Positions 6,255 through 51,584 of a DNA stretch of 64,000 nt are shown here, piece by piece; position 1 is the first letter of the stretch, and every line of letters starts with the position of its first letter. The translations under genes were made by a program, and so were the position numbers. The stretch spans positions 28,148,001 to 28,212,000 of the forward strand of contig OX597830.1 of the NCBI GenBank assembly GCA_951406725.2. Reading direction: 5' to 3'. The notes under the pieces are model-generated. The model was not told the origin of the DNA, did no database searches, and saw nothing but the letters and a program-made list of their open reading frames with translations. Source of the DNA: Octopus vulgaris. Taxonomy: Eukaryota.

Positions 6255-6280
<26 letters not shown>

Positions 6281-6285
<5 letters not shown>

Positions 6286-6348
6286 GTCTAGTGGTTAGGA
6301 TTCCTGGCTTTCACCCAGGCGGCCCGGGTTCGATTCCCGGCATGGGAA
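6281..6348 (+). pseudogene. tRNA-Glu-TTC: tRNA-Glu(TTC) copy lacking its first 4 nt (retroposed, SINE head)
   Basis: TGGTCTAGTGGTTAGGA (D arm/A box), CCTGG-CT-TTC-AC-CCAGG (anticodon 6310-6312), CCGGG-TTCGATT-CCCGG (T arm/B box), 3' acceptor CATGGGA-A. The required 5' TCCC is replaced by (TA)n, so only 3 of 7 acceptor pairs remain. No CCA. Confidence 0.9.
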
Positions 6349-11179: not shown

Positions 11180-11297
11180 AGTTAATCCAAACAAGAAAAC
11201 ACAAAAAACAAAAAAAAAAGCAAAAAAAACACAACAACGCGAGGACGTGGAACAAATATAGTATTATTGGACGCTCAGGAAAGAAGGGAAGAAGGAG

Positions 11298-11299
<2 letters not shown>
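11180..11299 (-). mobile_element. Neptune-like PLE 3'-terminal fragment, truncated before the hammerhead, in (TA)n
   Basis: Near-identical to 35867-35964 and 42543-42642; flanked by TA repeats. Confidence 0.8.
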
Positions 11300-11337
<38 letters not shown>

Positions 11338-20814: not shown

Positions 20815-21047
20815 TTCCTTCTCGAGCCATGCCAGGTTCCTGACGGGCAGTTTCCCAGTTCCAATGGCGTATATATTACTCACCTGGCCGGGACGCCGGT
20901 CCGTCGCAAGATTACAAAATTTTGCCAGCTGAGTGGACTGGAGCAACGTGAAATGAAGTGTTTTGCTCGCGAATACAACATAGGACTGGTCCAGGAATCG
21001 AAACCACAATCTTACGTTCATGAGTACAACACGCTAACCACACGCCT
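20815..21047 (-). mobile_element. SINE family C
   Basis: Reverse-complement match to 12341-12594 along its length. Confidence 0.8.
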
Positions 21048-21138: not shown

Positions 21139-21510
21139 CAGGGTGATTCAAAAGTCTCCATTCATAGGAAAACATTTTATTGTTTTATAAGAGACAGGTA
21201 ATAAGATTCCCTAGATCCCCCAATCTGACCCCTCTTGATAGCTATCTTTGGGGGCATTTGAAAGGCATGGCGTATCGCGAAAAGATAAAAGACAAAGTCT
21301 TTGAAGCAACGCATCACCAACTCATTTGTACACGTATTACCAGATGTACTATTACGAGATCACAATGAGTGGGGCAAACGTATTGTAATGTGTATTCAAA
21401 ACAATGGTAACCACATAGAGCCTGTTAAATTAAAAAAAAACTGTTCTTATAATCAATTTCTTATAAAAAGATAAATTGTTCCTATGTATGGCGACTTTTG
21501 AATCACCCTG
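21139..21510 (+). mobile_element. Internally deleted Tc1/mariner element (rosa/DD41D-like), 372 bp
   Basis: TIRs CAGGGTGATTCAAAAGTC.CCAT.CATAGGAA at both ends with TA flanks. The interior encodes FPRSPNLTPLDSYLWGHLKGMAY and, after a frameshift, WGKRIVMCIQNNGNHIE (transposase C-terminus with a third catalytic D). Confidence 0.85.
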
Positions 21511-21616
21511 TATATATATATATATATAGTTGAAATTTATGAAAAGCAAAAGACGAAGACATGTGTATGAACAACGAAGTGGCATATTAGTTTGATGCTC
21601 GAGAAAGTGAGAAAGT

Positions 21617-21652
21617 CTTTTATGTTTCGAGCCTATGCTCTTCAGCAGAAAG
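21617..21652 (-). ncRNA. Minimal hammerhead motif in the PLE 3' repeat
   Basis: CTTT-CTGCTGA-A-GAGC(ATAG)GCTC-GAAA-CA-TA-AAAG; stem III CG has changed to CA. Confidence 0.6.
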
Positions 21653-22082
21653 TTCTTAGAGAAAATATACAGAGAGAGAATGAAAAACTTGTGGATTAAG
21701 CGATCATACATGGCGGGTGGTTGGGAGAAAAAGGTTTTGACAGTAGAGGTAGAAAGAAGGGGAGATGATAAAGTATTGGTAATCTCAAAATGAAGGTGTG
21801 CGTGTGTGTATGTGAGAGTGTGTCTATGTGTGCGTGTGTGGATAGGGGCTAGTGATTTTGACGTGTGGATGTGTGCGTATGTGTGTGCGTCTGTAATGTG
21901 TGGGTGTGTGTGGATGATGGTTTGTGGGTGTGCAGATGATAGTGTGTGGTGTGGATGTTTGATAGGAGTGGAGTATGTGGGTTTGGGATGTTGGGTGTGT
22001 AGTGCGGATGGGGTATCAGTGAAAAAATTTTGGCAGGAGTGAAGAGAGGAAGTAGGCGTCAGATGAAGAGAGAAGAGGGGAA

Positions 22083-22817
22083 TCAGATGAAGACAGGAGA
22101 GGAGTTAAGCCCATGTGACGCAAAGGAGCGAATTGAGAATATTAATTCTTGTCCACGGCGAAGGCGTGAGTCCGGATGGCCCTTGTGCAAAGACAATCCG
22201 AACACAGACAGGTATTTGTTGTGAATGACTGGTAGAGCGGAAATGGCGGCGACCGGGGTGTCATTGCCGAGTCTGATGCCTAGGAGGTACTCTGCGAATC
22301 GGTCAGCCAAGCGTCGTCCCATTTGGCTGATATACAGAGAAGGGTAGAAAGAGCATGAGACGCAGTAAATGACGTTGCTAGAAGTGCAGGTAAAGGGGTC
22401 GGTGATATGATTGATATGATGATGGGTGCCTTTGAGGATGGTGGAGTTGGAGAGGTAGGGGAAAGTGTGACAGCTTTGATGGGAGCAGGGGAAGAAGCCA
22501 GGTTGGGAGGTGGGGTTACGGAAGAAACTGTAAACAAATAGGTCACGCAGGTTGTGGGCTCGTTTCAAAGAGGGAAGGGGTAGGTTGGGGAAGATGTGAG
22601 AAGTGCAGCGGTCGGGCTGGAATCGCCGGAAGTCTCGGAGAATTGTGCGTTGGAGGGACAGGGTGGAGAGATGGTAGGTAAGAGGAAACTGGAGAAGGGT
22701 AACGACGGGGCAGATGCAGGGAGAGAGAGTTGAGGCACGGTCCAAGGAACGTGCTCTGACGAGGGCTGTGTGGATAGTGGTGAGCGGATATCCACGAATG
22801 ATGACGTGGCAAGCCAT
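22083..22817 (-). pseudogene. PLE RT-thumb/GIY-YIG ORF remnant (244 aa)
   Basis: ORF track translation carries the motifs above; YIG has decayed to YIS. Confidence 0.85.
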
Positions 22818-24611
22818 GAGTTGAGGCTGAGTCTCAAAGTCATGGTTACCACTGCAGAGCCTGCGCAGACGGAGGAATCGAGAGTAGGGGATGGAAGGCT
22901 TGGTGTGGGTAAGGTGAGAGGGTGAGAAGTTAAAGTATGAATTTGAGTGTGTTTGTAGTGGATGGAGGTAGCGAGAGCAGAGTTGTGTATGTTGACCGAA
23001 ATGTCGGGAAATGCGACTGAAATGTTGGAGATAGTGCAGGACTATTCAAGGCAGGGTGGAAGGATTGGACAAAAGAGAGGAAGGAGTCTAGTTGAGTGCA
23101 GGAGAGTGAGGTCGCACCGATACAGTCATCAATATAACAACCGTATAGATACTACTCTAATATTATACCAGACTGAATAGACAAGGACACTGGACTAACT
23201 GCACATGGGTCAAGATTTGATACTGCAGCTGACTGAATATTCCTTGAGTGGATGCTCCTCGTGAGATTTTTTCATTGATATGTTTGTCTTTGGTTATCGC
23301 CAAACCAGTCTTCATAAAGCCGTTCTAGAATCTATGCAATTTCATCCGTGACCATCCCGCATTTTTATTACCATTTTCATTATCAATGTCTTTTCGTTTT
23401 GTTTTATCTTTCAGGTAGAAGATTGGCTTGAGAACGATCAAGCTATATTATGTAGCACGTCGAATGGCCTTATAAAGGCCCAAAGCTGACCGTTGTATAA
23501 GTGGATGTATTGTATGCACGTGTATCAGGTTTGCGAATATCATATGTAAAGGAGAGCATGTGTGTGTCCGTGTGTGTGCATGTGTGTGTTTGTGTGTGTA
23601 CGTTTAACTAGTTCTAGAAAATAGTCACGCCTACAGGTACCTTCTTCGTCATGTATCAGAGGAGACTTAAGCCTTTTAACTAAAGCTTGTTTATACTACT
23701 GGATTCAGGATAATGTTTTGCCTTGTACTAATTACTGCGTTTGTGTCAAATAAACTGTTTTTTTTTTGTTCCCGCATTTTACACTTCTCATATATTTAGA
23801 ATCCAACACTAGAAATTGTTTGACCAACTGGGGATGTAGCTGCTGGAGTAATTTCTTCGAAACGTCAACCAGAGTCCTTCAAATAATTCCTTGTAATCTT
23901 AACAAAGAAAAGAATTATAGAAAAGTGTAACACTTGATATACCGTGACTGTAAAAAAAAAAGAGACAAAATGGTCTCGACAAGAATGATCTTGATTACAT
24001 TTCTACTGTAGCAAGGAGCACAAGAAGCATTTAAAATTATGTAAATCTAAAACAACGGCCATAATAACAAAAAGGATAAATGAGCAAGTGTCAGATATAT
24101 ACACTCATACACACAAACACTATCATGTGCATGCATGTATGAATATATGGACAATTCATGCATGCATACGTAGATATATACAAAATCTATGTATGTTTAC
24201 ATGTATGTGTATGAAGTACAGTTGGTATACTTGGGCACGGCAAACTAAATGGAATATACTTATTTATATCAAGTGCCATTCGTATTTATATCCAGTGCTA
24301 AGATTTAGTAACTAATTATAGAAGATCAGTAACTAGAATTTTCAGTGTTAGCTGGTGTTGTTTCGAAGTGAAAATGTGAATTACTGATTGTAATTTGATC
24401 TTTTATTCTGACCTACAACAAAATACGTTATTAAATATTCTTATCCTGATACGAGTTTATTCCATGATAACTTATGTTGTTAAAGTGTGAATTTGTAATA
24501 TTCACGCCTTCCCTGGGATCAAAGCTATTCTGATAAAATGCTGGACTGGCCCTTTGTATTCCGAGTTCAAATTCCTTTCAGGTCAAATTTGCCTTTCACT
24601 ATTGCGACGAC

Positions 24612-32805: not shown

Positions 32806-33036
32806 GAAGGCGCATGGCTCCAGCTGTTAGAGCGTCGAGCTTACGATCGTGAGGTTGTGAGTTCGAATCCCGGACCGGGCTGCGTGTTGTGTTCTTGAGC
32901 AAGACACTTTATTTCACTTTGCTCCAGTTCACTCAGCTGTAGAAATGAGCTGCGACGCCAATCTTGCCCGGACTTGTGTCTCGGAGGATAATTATCTAGG
33001 TGCAATCACATGGTCAGTTATGACCGAAGTGGGTCT

Positions 33037-35866: not shown

Positions 35867-35870
<4 letters not shown>

Positions 35871-36073
35871 ATCCAAACAAGAAAGCACAAAAGACACAAC
35901 AACGCGAGGACGTGGAACAAATATAGTATTATAGGACGCTCAGGAAAGAAGGAAAGAAGGAAGGTTTTCGTTTCGAGCGGAGCTCTTCGTCGGAAACATA
36001 GGAGAAGGAAAGATCCAGAGAAGGGAAGACAGAGGAAAAAACTCGCCAACGGTACACACGCGGTCACATTTTG

Positions 36074-36076
<3 letters not shown>
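35867..36076 (-). mobile_element. Neptune-like PLE 3' terminus (subfamily 2) with damaged hammerhead at 35963-35997
   Basis: Near-identical to 42543-42748 and flanked by (TA)n. Core CCGACGA; the cleavage triplet is disrupted. Confidence 0.85.
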
Positions 36077-36127
<51 letters not shown>

Positions 36128-36371
36128 AAATCGGTAACTGTTCTCTGATTACTGCCCCTCTCTGTGTCTCTCTTCGTCCTATGTTCTTATTTTGTTATTA
36201 TTTCTTGGGCGTATCTTTGCAGTGTCGTTCTCTCACCTATTACGTATTGCGCGCCGTAATAGTAAACAACATAAGTAATATACGGTCAGAACCAGCAGAT
36301 CGAATGGCCTACTTGGAATAGCAAACGCACCCTATTTTTAAAGTATCTGAATAATATTGTGCTGGTAGGCA

Positions 36372-36438
<67 letters not shown>

Positions 36439-36456
36439 GATCGATCTATATATCTA

Positions 36457-36580
36457 TTTTTTTATGATCCCTTTTTTTGATCGATAACTTACACCCCCCT
36501 TTCTTGTCTCTCCCCCAAAAGAAAAGCTCTACTTTGTAATTTGTTCCCCTCTGTGTTCCGCCCCGTGTGACTAATAAACA
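36457..36580 (+). mobile_element. Tx1-like element 3' tail, copy A
   Basis: ccccaaaagaaaagctctac.ttgtaatttgt..ccgtgtgactAATAAAca followed by tatctatc. Confidence 0.75.
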
Positions 36581-36758
36581 TATCTATCTAACAAGCTACC
36601 TATCTACCTACCTACCTACCTACCTACCTACCTACCTACCTACCTACCTACCTACCTACCTACCTACCTACCTACCTACTTACCTATCTACCTATCTATC
36701 TATCTACCTACCTACCTACCTACCTACCTACCTATCTATCTATCTACCTACCTACCTA

Positions 36759-36927
36759 TTTTTTTCTTTTCCTTTTTTTTCTTTTTTTCTTTTTTTTGTT
36801 CTTTTTCCCCTTTTACGATCCCTTTTGATCGAAAACCGACGCCACCTTTTTTTCTCCCCCAAAAGAAAAGCTCTACCTTGTAACTTGTCCCATCTGTGTG
36901 CAGCCCTGTATGGACAATAAAGAAATT
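36759..36927 (+). mobile_element. Tx1-like element 3' tail, copy B
   Basis: Same terminus; AATAAAgaaa followed by a (CTAC)n tract. Confidence 0.8.
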
Positions 36928-37278
36928 TGTCTACCTACCTACCTACCTACCTACCTACCTACCTACCTACCTACCTACCTACCTACTTACTTACCTACAT
37001 ACCTACCTACCTACCTACCTACCTACCTACCTACCTACCTACCTACCTAACTATCTATCTACCTACCTACATACCTACTTACCTACCTACCTATCTACCT
37101 ACCTACCTACATACGTATCTATCTATCTACCTACCTACCTACATACCTCCTTACCTACCTACCTACCTACCTACCTACCTACTTACATACTTACCTACCT
37201 ACCTACCTACCTATCTATCTACCTACCTACTTACCTACCAACCTACCTACTTACCTACCTACCTACTTACCTATCTAC

Positions 37279-37340
<62 letters not shown>

Positions 37341-37341
<1 letters not shown>

Positions 37342-38458
37342 GCAGTCGTGGATCAAAAAGAGGCCGAGGAAGGGCGAATGGCACCGCGAGTGTCGCGTTG
37401 CTCTCAAGCAACTCTGCCGTCCTGGGTCGACCTTAAGTGACTTCAACACAACCAAAGCATTCTATAGGGGTTTAGTGGAGGGGAGGTACGACGACGTGCT
37501 CGGGGCGAACCTGGACGTCGACGAGGAGTACCTGACCCGCCTGTTCAGGACGACTTTCGGGCCAGGGCCCATGGACAACTTCCAGAGATCCCTGGCCTGG
37601 CAGTGCTACCGAGAAGCGCTACCCGTTCGGGATAAGCTCTACAGACACGGCTCGAGAAACACGGGGCCGACCTGCCCGAGATGCGGTCAGAGCGACGAAA
37701 CCGTTCTGCACGCACTCGTTCAGTGTCCAACAATTTCCGACCTGTGGGCTTATGTCGAACAACTGCTGTCACGTGTGGGACGAGTCGGTTTATCAGCTGA
37801 GTCTATCGTCAATATTGTCACGCCTCCTTCCTTCAAACGGGAAGGAAGAGCTATTTTCATCATCCTTGTGGCTATGGCGAAAGAATGTATCTGGTGGACG
37901 CGTCTGAAAGGATTGGAGACAAACACTTTCCTCTCTGGTCAATCTCTCATCAACTTCTTCAAGTACCACTTGAAAAGGAAAGTGAGAGTAGAGAGGCAAG
38001 TTTTGTCTAGCGAATGTTTTAAAAAAAGATGGGTGAATGTAGCAAGAATGGCACGTATGTATGACGAAGCCACCTTGAGCATAGTCCTATGAACCCAGAA
38101 ATCGAAAACAGAGAGTTGCTTATTTGCAAAAAAAAAAGAAATATAAAATGTGACTTCATTGACCGAGGTTACCGTGGTCTTTTCCGTAGGCTTTTCTTTC
38201 CACGGGTAAACCTCACCTGTCCTCCCCTTTACACTTCATATTGACATTTCTGTGATAACGATCCCTATTGATCAATTTTTTTTTCCTCTCCCCACTTTTT
38301 TTAACCCCCCCTTTTTTGTCCTTTTTCTCTCCTTTTACGATCCCTTTTGATCGAAACACCCCTTTCCTTTTTTTTTTTTTTTTTAAACCTTCAAAAGAAA
38401 AGCTCTACCTTGTAATTTGTTCTATCTGTGTGCAGCCCTGTGTGGCTAATAAAGAAAC
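37341..38458 (+). mobile_element. Tx1/L1-clade LINE, 5'-truncated copy C (ORF2 C-terminus with zf-RVT, stop at 38092)
   Basis: Open frame of about 250 aa: FQRSLAWQCYREALPVRDKL..CPRCGQSDETVLHALVQCPTISDLW (C-x2-C-x8-H-x4-C zf-RVT). T-rich 3' UTR, AATAAA at 38448, bounded by (TATC)n. Confidence 0.9.
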
Positions 38459-38463
38459 ATATC

Positions 38464-39226
38464 TATCAGCTGAGTCTATCTTCAATATTGTCACGCCTCC
38501 TTCCTTCAAACGGGAAGGAAGAGCTATTTTCATCATCCCTGTGGCTATGGCGAAAGAATGTATCTGGTGGACGCGTCTGAAAGGATTGGAGACAAACACG
38601 TTCTACTCTGGTCAATCTCTCATCAACTTCTTCAAGTACCACTTGAAAAGGAAAGTGAGAGTAGAGAGGCAAGTTTTGTCTAGCGAATGTTTTAAAAAAA
38701 GATGGGTGAATGTAGCAAGGATGGCACGTATGAATGACGAAGCCACCTTGAACATAATCCTATGAACCCAGAAATTGAAAACAGGGTTACCCACTTGCAA
38801 ACAAATGTGGTAACATATAACAATATTGACCAAGGTTACCGTGGTCTTTTTCGTAGGCTTTTCTTCCCACGGATAAACCTTACTTGCTTTCCCCCTTACA
38901 CCATATATCATAACACTGTGATACACGATCCCTATTGATCGTTCTTTTTTTCCTCTTCCCCTTTTTTCCCCTTTTTTCTTCTTTTTTCATTTCTCTTTCC
39001 TTTTGTTCCTTTTCCTTTTCTTTTTTCTTCTTTTTCTTCTTTTTATTTTATTCAATTTTTTTTTGTTTTTTTGTTTTCGTTCTTTTCTTCCCTTTTACGA
39101 TCCCTCTTGATCGAAAACCTACGCCACCCCCTTTTTTTTCTTTTGTTATTTGTTCTCTTCATCCCCCAAAAGAAAAGCTCTACCTTGTCCCATCTGTGTG
39201 CAGCCCTGTGTGGCCAATAAAGAAAC
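38464..39226 (+). mobile_element. Tx1-like copy D
   Basis: Near-identical to copy C from 37791 onward. The 5' junction lies at an internal TATC; ends AATAAAgaaac then (TATC)n. Confidence 0.9.
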
Positions 39227-39284
<58 letters not shown>

Positions 39285-39285
<1 letters not shown>

Positions 39286-40237
39286 CTGCTGTCACGTGTG
39301 GGACGTGTCGGTTTATTAGCTGAGTCTATCGTCAATATTGTCACGCCTCCTTCCTTCAAACGGGAAGGAAGAGCTATTTTCATCATCCTTGTGGCTATGG
39401 CGAAAGAATGTATCTGGTGGACGCATCTGAAAGGATTGGAGACAAACACATTCCTCTCTAGTCAATCTCTCATCAACTTCTTCAAGTACCACTTGAAAAG
39501 GAAAGTGAGAGTAGAGAGGCAAGTTTTGTCTAGCGAATGTTTTAAAAAAAGATGGGTGAATGTAGCAAGGATGGCACGTATGAACGACGAAGCCACCTTG
39601 AGCATAATCCTATGAACCCAGAAATTGAAAACAGAGGGTTACCCACTTGCAAACAAATGTGGTAACATATAACAATATTGACCAAGGTTACCGTGGTCTT
39701 TTTCGTAGGCTTTTCTTCCCACGGATAAACCTTACTTGCTTTCCCCTTTACACCATATATCATAACACTGTGATACACGATCCCTATTGATCGTTCTTTT
39801 TTTCCTCTTCCCCTTTTTTTCCTCTTTTTTCTTCTTTTTTCATTTCTCTTTTCTCTTGTTCCTTTTCCTTTTCTTTTTTTCTTTTTATTCTTTTTATTTT
39901 TTTATTTTATTATTTTTTTTTGTTCTTTTTTTCCCTTTTACGATCCCTCTGGATCGAAAACCTACGCCACCCCTTTTTTTCCTCTTTTTTCTTCTTTTTT
40001 CATTTCTCTTTTCTTTTGTTCCTTTTCCTTTTCTTTTTTTTCTTTTTATTCTTTTTATTTTTTATTTTATTTATTTATTTTTTTGTTCTTTTCTTCCCTT
40101 TTACGATCCCTCTGGATCGAAAACCTACGCCACCCCTTTTTTTCTTTTGTTTTTTGTTTTTTTCATCCCCCAAAAGACAAGCTCTACCTTGTAACTTGTC
40201 CCATCTGTATGCAGCCCTGTGTGGCCAATAAAGAAAC
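39285..40237 (+). mobile_element. Tx1-like copy E with internal 3' UTR duplication
   Basis: Near-identical to C and D; the ttttacgatccctctggatcgaaaacctacgccacccc unit occurs twice. Flanked by (TATC)n. Confidence 0.9.
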
Positions 40238-40608
40238 TTATCTATCTATCTATCTATCAATCTATCTATCTATCTATTTATCTATTTATCTAGGAAATTA
40301 GTATTATACCTATAGAGATGTGTTTGATTCGTAGCTTACACTGGTCATCTCTGAGTAAATGCTGAATAACCAATCGGATAAAAATGATAAAGCGAACGTT
40401 TGCTCTGGTTTATCATACAGTATGTGTAATACTTGCGACTGTGTTCTAAAGTATCTCGTCTATGAGTGGCGTGTGGTGGGCCCCCTAAGACAGACACACA
40501 CATGCAGTCGCTCTCAGCCCACCCATACCACACATACATGCACCACATACACTTAAGCATGCACATGCACATGTACACACTTACGCAGATACCGATGCAC
40601 AAGCACGT

Positions 40609-40671
<63 letters not shown>

Positions 40672-40717
40672 GATAGATACACATCAGGCAGAGAGACAGA
40701 CAAACAGGTAGAGAGTT

Positions 40718-40774
<57 letters not shown>

Positions 40775-40789
40775 TAGATTGATAGATAT

Positions 40790-41505
40790 GTTTCTTTATT
40801 GGCCACACAGGGCTGGAACACAGATGGGTAGGACAAAATACAAAGTAGAGCTTTTCTTTTGGGGGAAAAGGAGAGAAGAAACAAGAAAAAAATGTGGGTC
40901 GAATTGCGATCAAAAGGGATCATGAGAAAAGAAAACGAAAAGGGTTGGGCTGATCAATAGGGATCGTGTATCACAGAAATGTCAATGTAAAAAGGGAAAA
41001 CAGATTAGGTTTATCCGTAGAAAAAAAAAGCTTACGGAAAAGACCACGGGGACCTTGGACAATAGTGTCATGCAAAAAAAAAACAAAAAAACAAGTGACT
41101 CTCTTTTTTCCCTTCTCTTTGTTTTGGTTCATAGGATTATGCTCAAGGTGGCTTCGTGAATCACTCGTGCCATCCTTGCTACATTCACCCATCTTTTTTT
41201 TAAACAGTCACTAAATAAAACTTCCCTCTCTACTCTCACCTTCCTCCTCGAGTGATGCTTGAAGAAGTTGATGAGAGATAGACCAGAGAGGAAAGAGTTT
41301 GTCTCTAGACCTTTCAGACGCGTCCACCATACACATTATTTTGCCATAACCACAAGTACGATGAAAATGGCTCTTCCTTCTAGTTTCAAGGAAGGAGTCA
41401 CAACAATATTCACGATAGACACGCGAGTGCAGTCGTTCGATATAGGACCACAGGTCGGAATTGGTTGGACACTGTATGAGTGTGTGCGGGAGGGTTTCTA
41501 CGCTA
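40790..41505 (-). mobile_element. Tx1-like copy F (older, inverted)
   Basis: Reverse-complement homology (ETLPHTLIQCPTNSDLWSYIE); its 3' end abuts gatagata, which is (TATC) on its own strand. Confidence 0.85.
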
Positions 41506-42542: not shown

Positions 42543-42748
42543 AGTTAATCCAAACAAGAAAGCACAAAAAAACACAACAACGCGAGGATGTGGAACAAAT
42601 ATAGTATTATTGGATGCTCAGGAAAGAAGGAAAGAAGGGGGGTTTAACGTTTCGAGCGGAGCTCTTCGTCGGAAACATAGGAGAAGGAAATATCCAGTGA
42701 AGGGAAAATAGAGGAAAAAAATCGCCAACGGTACACACACGGTCACAT
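42543..42748 (-). mobile_element. Neptune-like PLE 3' terminus (subfamily 2)
   Basis: Matches 35867-36069; (TA)n at the 3' end. Confidence 0.85.
42642..42676 (-). ncRNA. Minimal hammerhead motif (U4C variant)
   Basis: GTTT-CCGACGA-A-GAGC(TCC)GCTC-GAAA-CG-TT-AAAC; stems I and II are perfect. Confidence 0.7.
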
Positions 42749-42975
42749 GGCTCAGTGGTTAGAGCGTCGACTTTACGATCGTGATGTTGTGAGTTCGAAT
42801 CCCGGACCGGGCTGCGTGCTGTGTTCTTGAGCAAGACACTTTATTTCACGTTACCTTTCCCTTGGATAGCACTGGTGGCGTGGAGAGAGGAGGCCGGTAT
42901 GCCTGGGTGATTGCTGGTCGTCCATAAACAACCTTACCCAGACTTGTGCCTGGGAGGGTAACTCTGTTGGGTGAA
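42746..42975 (+). mobile_element. SINE family C
   Basis: First ~105 bp are nearly identical to 32813-32920. Confidence 0.85.
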
Positions 42976-49961: not shown

Positions 49962-51584
49962 ATAAATTTAAGACCGATGATAAAAGTTCTATTTTTTACA
50001 AAATATTTTGTTACTAACTCCATACAAATTATTTTCATCTTTTGCACCTTATGCAGAATTTATTTCTCTTTCGAATGATGCAGACAATAACTATTTTTAT
50101 ATAACTTGAAGAATTCTAATGCTAAATTAATATAAACCTTTCAAATTTACCGGCAAAATTATTTTCAGACAGAATCATTATAATTTTATTGAAAGCTTAA
50201 GATGGTACAAAAATGGGCAACAAGAACTAAATACATATTAGTACTTTGTGCCGTAGCCTTTATTCTTAATAACGGCTGAACAAAGCCTGGTTATTGAATA
50301 CGCTACGTGATTACAAAATTCTATGGGAATGCTTTGCCTTATTTCATTGATATAATCGTAAAATTATTTTAGATTAGATGTTTTTTTAGTATGGACGTCT
50401 TTGGAAATATAATTCCACAAGTTCTCGATCGGATTCAGGTCTGGGTTCTGGGGAGGCCATTCGATTACGTCAATATTATGGTGATCAAAAGATTCCAGAA
50501 CAATTTTGGCGTTGTGCACAGGACTATTGTCGTGCTGATAAATAGCTCGCGGAGGCATTTGGTAAGTTAAATATGGCACAGCATTAGCCTTTAGTAGATT
50601 CATATAACTAATACTATTTAGCTTTCCATCAACTTTAACTAGAGGACCAACACCAAAGCTACTAAATGCCGCCCACACCATCACATCCCATCCCCGCATG
50701 CACCCTTTTTTCACGTATTTCTGATAGAATTCCTCGGTTGGGCGACGTCTGACGTATGTTTTACCACCTGATACAAACATACAGATGCGTGACTCGTCAC
50801 TCCAAAGGACCCTGCAGCAATCTTCGGCAGTCCATTGAGCATGACTTTTTGCGAAATTAAGGCGTTTGAGTGGATTTCTTTCGGATATTATTGGCTTTTT
50901 CCTAGCGATTCGTTCATGTAATCCAAATTCTCTCAACCGGTTGCGGACGGTTTGTGGTCTAAAAATAACACCATTCTCGTTAGACAATTGTTTACAAATG
51001 TCAACAGCTGTCAGTTTTCGGTTGCCTTCCGAAAGTCGGTGGATTCGACGGTTCAACTGAGCCGTGGTTTTTCTTGAAGCGCCAGTCTTTTGCCGATCTT
51101 TATATTGACCAGTCTCCGAGTATAATTTCCACGCTTGCACACAAACCGTTTTACTGCACTTTAGTTGCTTGTTGATGTTCGAAAAGGAAACTTTTTGCTG
51201 GTGGAATAATGCGATTTTTGTTCTCGTGACTGGACTGAATCTACGATGTTTTCCCATTATTAATCAATTGTATAATAATTTTAAATTATAACACTATATA
51301 GTGCAGTTAGGCTAGTTGTGGGACCACCTATTTTGGCAAAAACAATTTGCATACATATTACATGGTCTTAAACTAATTTTGCCGGTAAATTTAACACGTT
51401 TATATTAATTTAGCATTAGAATTCTTCAAGTTGTATAAAAATAGTTATTGTCTGCATCATTTGAAAGAGAAATAAATACTGCATAAGATGTAAAACATAG
51501 AAATAATTTGTATGGTGTTAGTAACAAAATATTTTGTAAAAAATAGAACTTTTATCATCGGTCTTAAATTTATTTTCGGCAGTG
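49962..51584 (-). mobile_element. Tc1-family DNA transposon with ~210-220-bp IR/DR terminal inverted repeats
   Basis: 49962-50170 is the reverse complement of 51365-51573. The right end is ..ggcagtg|TA. The left end lacks the terminal 11 bp (cactgccgaaa). Confidence 0.95.
50238..51257 (-). pseudogene. Tc1 DD34E transposase, 339 codons with one in-frame TAA at 50364-50366
   Basis: HTH N-terminus, WSDES, HDNSPVH..WPPQNPDLNPIENLW with 34 residues between D and E. The frame continues past the stop as FYDYINEIRQSIPIEFCNHVAYSITRLCSAVIKNKGYGTKY*. Confidence 0.93.

Follow-up and report, generated by a model that had tools for sequence, protein, structure and literature searches.

An L1/Tx1-group LINE associated with TATC/TACC microsatellites in Octopus vulgaris

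Insertion into microsatellites is an established habit of several long interspersed nuclear elements (LINEs). The repeats described as targets include ACAY, AC, TC, TTC and TAA (PMC3812793) and TG (PMC4640811), and Tx1 families are found on TTCC and TTTC microsatellites (PMC4494074); in Tx1L, TRAS1, SART1 and R1 it is the endonuclease that sets the target (PMC1919474). The genome of Octopus vulgaris carries 80 L1-Tx1 families amounting to 56 Mb, 13 of them recently active, together with 60 L1 families (10.8 Mb); the available part of that account gives no target preference for the L1-Tx1 families (PMC13282606). Here we describe a 64,000-nt stretch of O. vulgaris DNA (contig OX597830.1, positions 28,148,001 to 28,212,000 of the forward strand; hereafter the window), in which six pieces of one LINE lie between 36370 and 41505 among TATC and TACC repeats. 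From the arrangement of the sequences, we consider it probable that this TATC-associated element of the L1/Tx1 group has inserted repeatedly into a TATC/TACC microsatellite that already existed, most likely by seeking it out as a target.

BLAST searches with copies C and E as queries found these six pieces and no further one in the window, the leftover matches being T-rich simple repeats only. Five copies, A to E, lie head to tail on the + strand (36458-40238) and the sixth, F, is inverted (41504 to 40789); all six share a common 3' end, and their 5' ends are variably truncated. They are the same five head-to-tail copies and one inverted copy that had been proposed from the letters alone, with 5' points that were off by no more than 1-2 nt. 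Copy A (36458..36579, +) is a 122-nt 3' end fragment, which contains the second of the two hairpins discussed below and an AATAAA at 36573, while copy B (36760..36927, +, start approximate) is a 3' fragment of ~168 nt with TACC repeats on either side. Copy C (37341..38459, +; 1119 nt) comprises the last 250 codons of the second open reading frame (ORF2; stop codon 38090-38092) and the 3' untranslated region (UTR). Copy D (38464..39227, +; 764 nt) likewise has an open ORF2 tail followed by the 3' UTR, and copy E spans 39286..40238 (+; 953 nt). In the 3' UTR of copy E there is an internal 163-nt duplication (39810-40166), as a result of which the second hairpin is doubled. Copy F (40789..41504, -) is more diverged, being ~85% identical to C-E, and has one stop and one frameshift. 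The 402-aa frame at 36884-38092 should not be read as element sequence throughout; part of it crosses a TACC tract, and the element coding sequence is confined to 37340-38092.

At the 3' end each copy has an AATAAA (36573, 36916, 38448, 39216, 40227 and, on the - strand, 40800) and then a few bases that run straight into repeats; poly(A) was found at none of the six ends. This is as the original prediction had stated. After AATAAA, four of the six copies (C-F) have GAAAC plus one A or T, whereas B has GAAATT and A has a single C. The terminus of copy C (38448..38459, +), for example, consists of AATAAA plus 6 nt abutting TATC. The units next to the 3' end are TATC in A and C-F and TGTC/TACC in B. 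Behind copy E the TATC tract extends over 40239..40293 (+), and behind copy F four TATC-type units are followed by (TA)n. As a background, a repeat of this kind starts within 12 nt at 871 of 118,674 positions outside the array (0.7%), or at 1,501 of 120,272 positions (1.2%) if the array is counted. The occurrence of all six 3' ends in TATC/TACC is therefore not due to chance.

The association extends to copies outside the window. A search with copy C listed 24 sequencing runs, of which 18, from six organisms, contained at least half of its words, and four runs were compared with 37325-38530: three that were DNA or untyped (organisms A, B and C) and one guessed to be RNA. The consensus of the loose ends 3' of 38467 was (TATC)n in all four. 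In organisms A, B and C such an end was carried by at least 128, 92 and 56 contigs, with an agreement of 0.72, 0.68 and 0.69, respectively; the guessed RNA run gave three contigs with TATC behind the 3' end, which are not usable as evidence for read-through. No poly(A) occurred behind 38467 among the matches listed (24 of 2,455 loose ends). A-rich loose ends at 38128 were set aside, as they reflect an internal A run and not a tail. On the 5' side, at least four contig variants link a TATC flank to the element no more than 8 nt from the copy C 5' end (among the 12 of 22 matches listed), and in one contig a 3' end is followed by TATC/TACC and then by a further short copy. The summed contig depth over the ORF was 0.8-2.6 million, as compared with ~56-120 for single pieces (run X1); this ~10,000-fold difference is not a copy count, and it points to a very abundant LINE family.

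A preference for TATC repeats, the core of the sequence-specific insertion originally proposed, thus holds both in the window and beyond it. Strict specificity for (TATC)n does not hold, as copy B lies in TACC repeats and copy F has no TATC tract on its 5' side. Target-specific Tx1 families have been defined by a single sequence type in >20% of flanks (PMC4494074); here, TATC/TACC-type repeats occupy 6/6 of the 3' flanks and 5/6 of the 5' flanks in the window and form the consensus in 4/4 runs, figures that are not a genome-wide count.

What argues for a target already in place is the 5' side of the copies. TATC/TACC flanks five of the six window copies at the 5' end, and these include copy A, which has no copy upstream of it. 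The (TATC)n tract 5' of copy A (36371..36457, +) consists of 17 TATC units with no element end before it and was probably a target already in place. Outside the array, the window has eight further TATC tracts with no element end upstream, and such tracts therefore exist on their own. The spacers differ widely in length (180, 413, 8 and 58 nt, with outer tracts of 88 and 55 nt) and in composition. Spacer A-B (36580..36759, +) is compound, with 31 TACC and 10 TATC units, and spacer B-C (36928..37340, +) is a 413-nt degenerate TACC tract whose last part is perfect TATC, containing 61 TACC, 24 TATC and 14 variant units; these two, as degenerate TACC tracts, are unlike a uniform copied tail. Spacer D-E (39228..39285, +) consists of 14 perfect TATC units. 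Spacer C-D (38460..38467, +) has just two TATC units, of which the second is also the internal TATC at the 5' end of copy D. The start of copy D at an internal TATC, microhomologous to the target, had been predicted, and is borne out by copy C, in which this TATC is present at 37791-37794; copy E has TATT at that place.

Several observations weigh against repeated insertion into an existing target. Copy F has no clear TATC tract at its 5' flank; this copy also lies on the strand that is poor in TATC (4 versus 195 TATCTATC 8-mers in the window), as if it were the carrier of its own short tail. Because the copies are ordered head to tail, all but one of the five 5' flanks made of TATC/TACC double as the 3' flank of the preceding copy, and these four are not independent. 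The 5' junction variants outside the window come with no figure for how much of their TATC part was matched, and, given an agreement of ~0.7 and the 24 of 2,455 loose ends listed, a minority of copies may have poly(A) or flanks of another kind. The common orientation of five of the six copies is explained by a strand bias of the repeat: all 12 (TATC)n tracts of at least 4 units (2119-59563) are on the + strand and none on the - strand (17 versus 0 runs), a bias that possibly comes from a transcribed intron.

If the TATC repeats were instead the element's own 3' tail, copied and lengthened at each insertion, the microsatellite would be seeded by the element, which would need little target preference or merely anneal to like repeats. 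Tail seeding by LINEs has been described for snake CR1-L3 and Rex (PMC6050309). It would agree with the fixed register of the 3' junction in five of the six copies and in the outside runs, with the start of copy A, where two TATC units stand in a TACC context, and with copy F, which has TATC on its 3' side alone. Seeding LINEs are recognized by a repeat on the 3' side only, however, and copy F is the only one that fits; TATC/TACC stands 5' of the other five, copy A among them, and at a few outside 5' junctions. Moreover, TATC is missing from the 3' end of copy B, the spacers are long and of degenerate TACC, and five copies fall within 4 kb while only F occurs elsewhere in the 64 kb. We therefore regard tail seeding as an unlikely source of the repeats.

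Less likely still is an origin of the array largely in one or two events, whether reverse transcription jumped from one element RNA to another or the DNA was duplicated in tandem. The 8-nt spacer between C and D and the start of D on an internal TATC would suit such an origin, since the cDNA of D could have jumped to an RNA ending in UAUC, and one similar short tandem was seen among the outside contigs. However, neither the 5' end nor the UTR subfamily is uniform among the copies (D and E have a common 3' UTR type that is absent from C), which rules out simple DNA duplication and upholds the earlier proposal of independent insertions of one LINE family. Their terminal 70-mers are 83-97% identical and their ORF parts ~97%, and degenerate spacers of 180 and 413 nt could not come from one RNA tail. 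The C-D joint itself would agree with a later insertion as well as with a template switch. Finally, it is very improbable that the element inserts broadly and has accumulated passively by survival in harmless microsatellite-rich regions, helped by TATC microhomology, as suggested for Drosophila Waldo-A/B near CA repeats (PMC3812793): simple repeats, (CT)n and (CTT)n tracts included, are indeed very dense in the window, yet (AT)n occupies 2,763 nt and TATC 837 nt, TATC-type repeats in register stand at every one of the six 3' junctions, and an identical (TATC)n consensus is found in three organisms.

Repeated insertion into an existing TATC/TACC tract can be put in terms of a simple mechanism. 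The endonuclease would prefer TAYC repeats and nick the GATA strand of (TATC)n/(TACC)n, and target-primed reverse transcription would start at that nick. The 3' processing of transcripts usually cuts 10-30 nt downstream of AATAAA. In this element 6 nt separate AATAAA from the junction; processing would then cut within the flanking repeat, and the resulting RNA would carry a few UAUC units followed by poly(A). The nicked GATA end could pair with these UAUC units and prime there, in which case the poly(A) would not be copied; priming of this kind would account for the absence of poly(A) as well as for the constant register. On this view one long compound tract took some five insertions, each a separate hit; a template switch within one event may instead account for the C-D junction. 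A wider scenario appears doubtful, if conceivable: that a cephalopod Tx1-like family of thousands of copies is polyadenylated inside the flanking GATA repeat, its RNA borrowing a primer-binding tail from there, and that insertions guided by an endonuclease specific for GATA repeats, which are common in animal genomes, both use and lengthen TATC tracts, a feedback that would build arrays and much of the octopus GATA microsatellites.

The signal in the RNA that the ORF2 protein (ORF2p) reads may be a repeated GATC hairpin. A GATC-CCT-loop-GATC motif occurs twice per 3' UTR, with both GATC arms invariant in all 11 instances and a variable loop. The first (38260..38273 in copy C, +) does not fold above shuffled sequences (z -0.64). 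The second hairpin (38338..38353 in copy C, +) is kept in all six copies; five of them were folded, with z-scores of -2.0 to -6.4, values that are generous because the fold windows were picked around the motif; on this pattern it may be regarded as the candidate recognition signal. A long stem in the upstream 3' UTR (~38166-38213) was rejected: it folds no better than shuffles in four copies (z -0.9 to -1.2), and its 1/12 compensatory pairs were matched in 124 of 500 shuffles.

The coding part of copy C corresponds to the C-terminal end of ORF2 (250 residues) and contains a zf-RVT zinc-binding domain at 37589..37747 (+; Pfam PF13966, E 2.5e-8; residues 84-136 of the fragment). A relative of 1148 aa, P0222, is 81% identical (202/250) across the whole fragment and has an N-terminal endonuclease of the apurinic/apyrimidinic (AP) type, a central reverse transcriptase (RT) and a C-terminal zf-RVT, of which the window itself retains the zf-RVT end only. 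This complete endonuclease-RT-zinc-finger ORF2 in a relative identifies the element as an L1/Tx1-group LINE. In a comparison with solved structures only, human L1 ORF2p came out nearest to P0222, at 185 bits, with R2 proteins at 72 or less. By its sequence affinities, then, the window element belongs to the L1 group of AP-endonuclease-type LINEs (L1 and Tx1). A tree of 49 RT regions joined the cephalopod family and its sister group at 100/100; 50 of 405 proteins had been chosen for it, and P0002 was dropped since its matched stretch was below 200 residues. References labelled as Tx1, Kibi, Koshi, Keno or L1 were absent from the tree, and the assignment of the element accordingly stops at the L1/Tx1 group, short of the Tx1 clade originally proposed. 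The sister lineage (P0023-P0052), 50-57% identical in the RT, forms clusters of up to 732 members.

The closest named matches are cephalopod, namely Argonauta hians (59-60% identity) and gene models of Octopus bimaculoides, which match over short stretches at 83% and 97%. The Tx1 label is absent from the cluster names of the relatives, the named ones (Patella, Branchiostoma, Metynnis) being 'hypothetical' or RT-domain proteins, and the Atlas protein clusters gave RT, endonuclease and zf-RVT matches only, with no clade name. Of ten relatives looked up, two fall in named clusters, those of Patella caerulea (11 members) and Metynnis hypsauchen (P0240, P0272), in which most members are near-identical genes whose locus tags adjoin one another; this is an indirect hint of elements stacked in tandem targets. 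At the DNA level no relatives were found in genome contigs (0/46 candidates) or viral contigs (0/28), and the 3'-end motif had no matches in either set. A single weak locus in metagenome contigs (37% identity, among 246 candidate stretches) was set aside. Two database entries also contain related sequence. In O. bimaculoides, a gene model labelled 'Rho GEF 10-like' (P0007) opens with ~45 residues of the element ORF2, probably an annotation artefact, or else an exonised fragment. A 64% identical relative (P0005) is assigned to a Herbaspirillum metagenome-assembled genome and is probably contamination, animal DNA in a bacterial bin.

The uninterrupted frame of copy C had been taken as a sign of recent activity, which overstates the case. 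The ORF stretches of D and E that overlap C are also free of stops, and the three copies are 96.7-97.4% identical in pairs over 302 coding nt (F, ~85%). With D and E equally open and ~3% divergence among the three, the open frame of C is a weak sign. Pairs of C, D and E differ by 2 silent and 5-7 amino-acid-changing codons each, a pattern as in dead copies, and in the sequencing-run comparison the copy C letters at 38060 and 37497 were found in almost no other contig. Overall, the copies are young without being fresh, and C does not stand out among them.

The window holds other features besides the array. A short element is present in three copies, 92-93% identical (35867-36075, 42544-42748 and 11209-11300), which start at (TA)n tracts; we take its reverse strand to contain a hammerhead-like motif resembling that of Penelope-like elements, and Rfam at gathering score gave no match for this motif. 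A tRNA-like head of a short interspersed nuclear element (SINE) likewise occurs three times (42746-42860, 32813-32920 and 20945-21041). A tRNA-Glu(TTC) at 6278-6347, called by ARAGORN and Rfam, with a SINE-like tail and then TATC repeats behind it, is either a gene or a SINE head. A Tc1/mariner transposase with a 299-aa open frame (HTH_Tnp_Tc3_2, DDE_3) lies at 50364-51263 (-). The region 21430-23045 (-) is purine-rich and higher in GC, with open frames of 224 and 320 aa that had no match in Pfam.

With regard to earlier descriptions, no TATC/GATA-targeting LINE was found by full-text searches of the literature, a scope that excludes Repbase, Dfam and the O. vulgaris library, which could already list the family or its target; the window family is probably among the annotated O. 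vulgaris L1-Tx1/L1 consensus sequences. No target of an octopus Tx1 element is given in the available parts of PMC6050309, PMC3747384, PMC8967140, PMC3124438, PMC8869645, PMC10294476 and PMC1919474, and a snake study, as far as its available text goes, did not find enrichment of transposable elements beside ATAG (= GATA/TATC) (PMC6050309). The novelty is modest: the TATC/GATA landing sequence is apparently undescribed, while microsatellite-targeting Tx1 LINEs, tetranucleotide ones included, are already known. The element would thus add TATC/GATA, in a mollusc host, to the microsatellite targets of LINEs, within a known class of mechanism, and its family appears to be very abundant and not a rare specialist. 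The full-length ORF2 of P0222 makes reading of the repeat by an AP-type endonuclease, and read-through priming, testable. On the practical side, octopus GATA microsatellite markers may have element-derived flanks in common.

The closest counterparts are the teleost Tx1 LINEs Kibi, on (TC)n, and Koshi, on (TTC)n, which resemble the window element as L1/Tx1-group LINEs in a pyrimidine-rich microsatellite (PMC4494074, PMC3812793). The window element differs from them in its octopus host and in its flanks, which are TATC/TACC and not (TC)n or (TTC)n; tracts of (CT)n and (CTT)n do occur in the window. The crocodilian elements Tx1-1_Crp, Tx1-5_Crp, Tx1-6_Crp, Tx1-1_Gav and Tx1-2/3/5/8_AMi, on (TTCC)n/(TTTC)n, likewise have a tetranucleotide target with two related units (PMC4494074). 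In contrast to theirs, the TATC/TACC unit of the window contains a purine, and the host is of another phylum. Waldo and Mino belong to the R1 clade, and the window element is of a different clade and target. These insect LINEs, on ACAY (Waldo) and AC (Mino), are endonuclease-type like the window element, and ACAY is similarly a repeat of four nucleotides in which one position may be either pyrimidine (PMC3812793). In snake CR1-L3/Rex, the 3' end enters a simple repeat, AATAG, in place of poly(A), as it does in the window element (PMC6050309). There, however, the repeat is a 3' tail, whereas the window element has repeats at its 5' junctions too.

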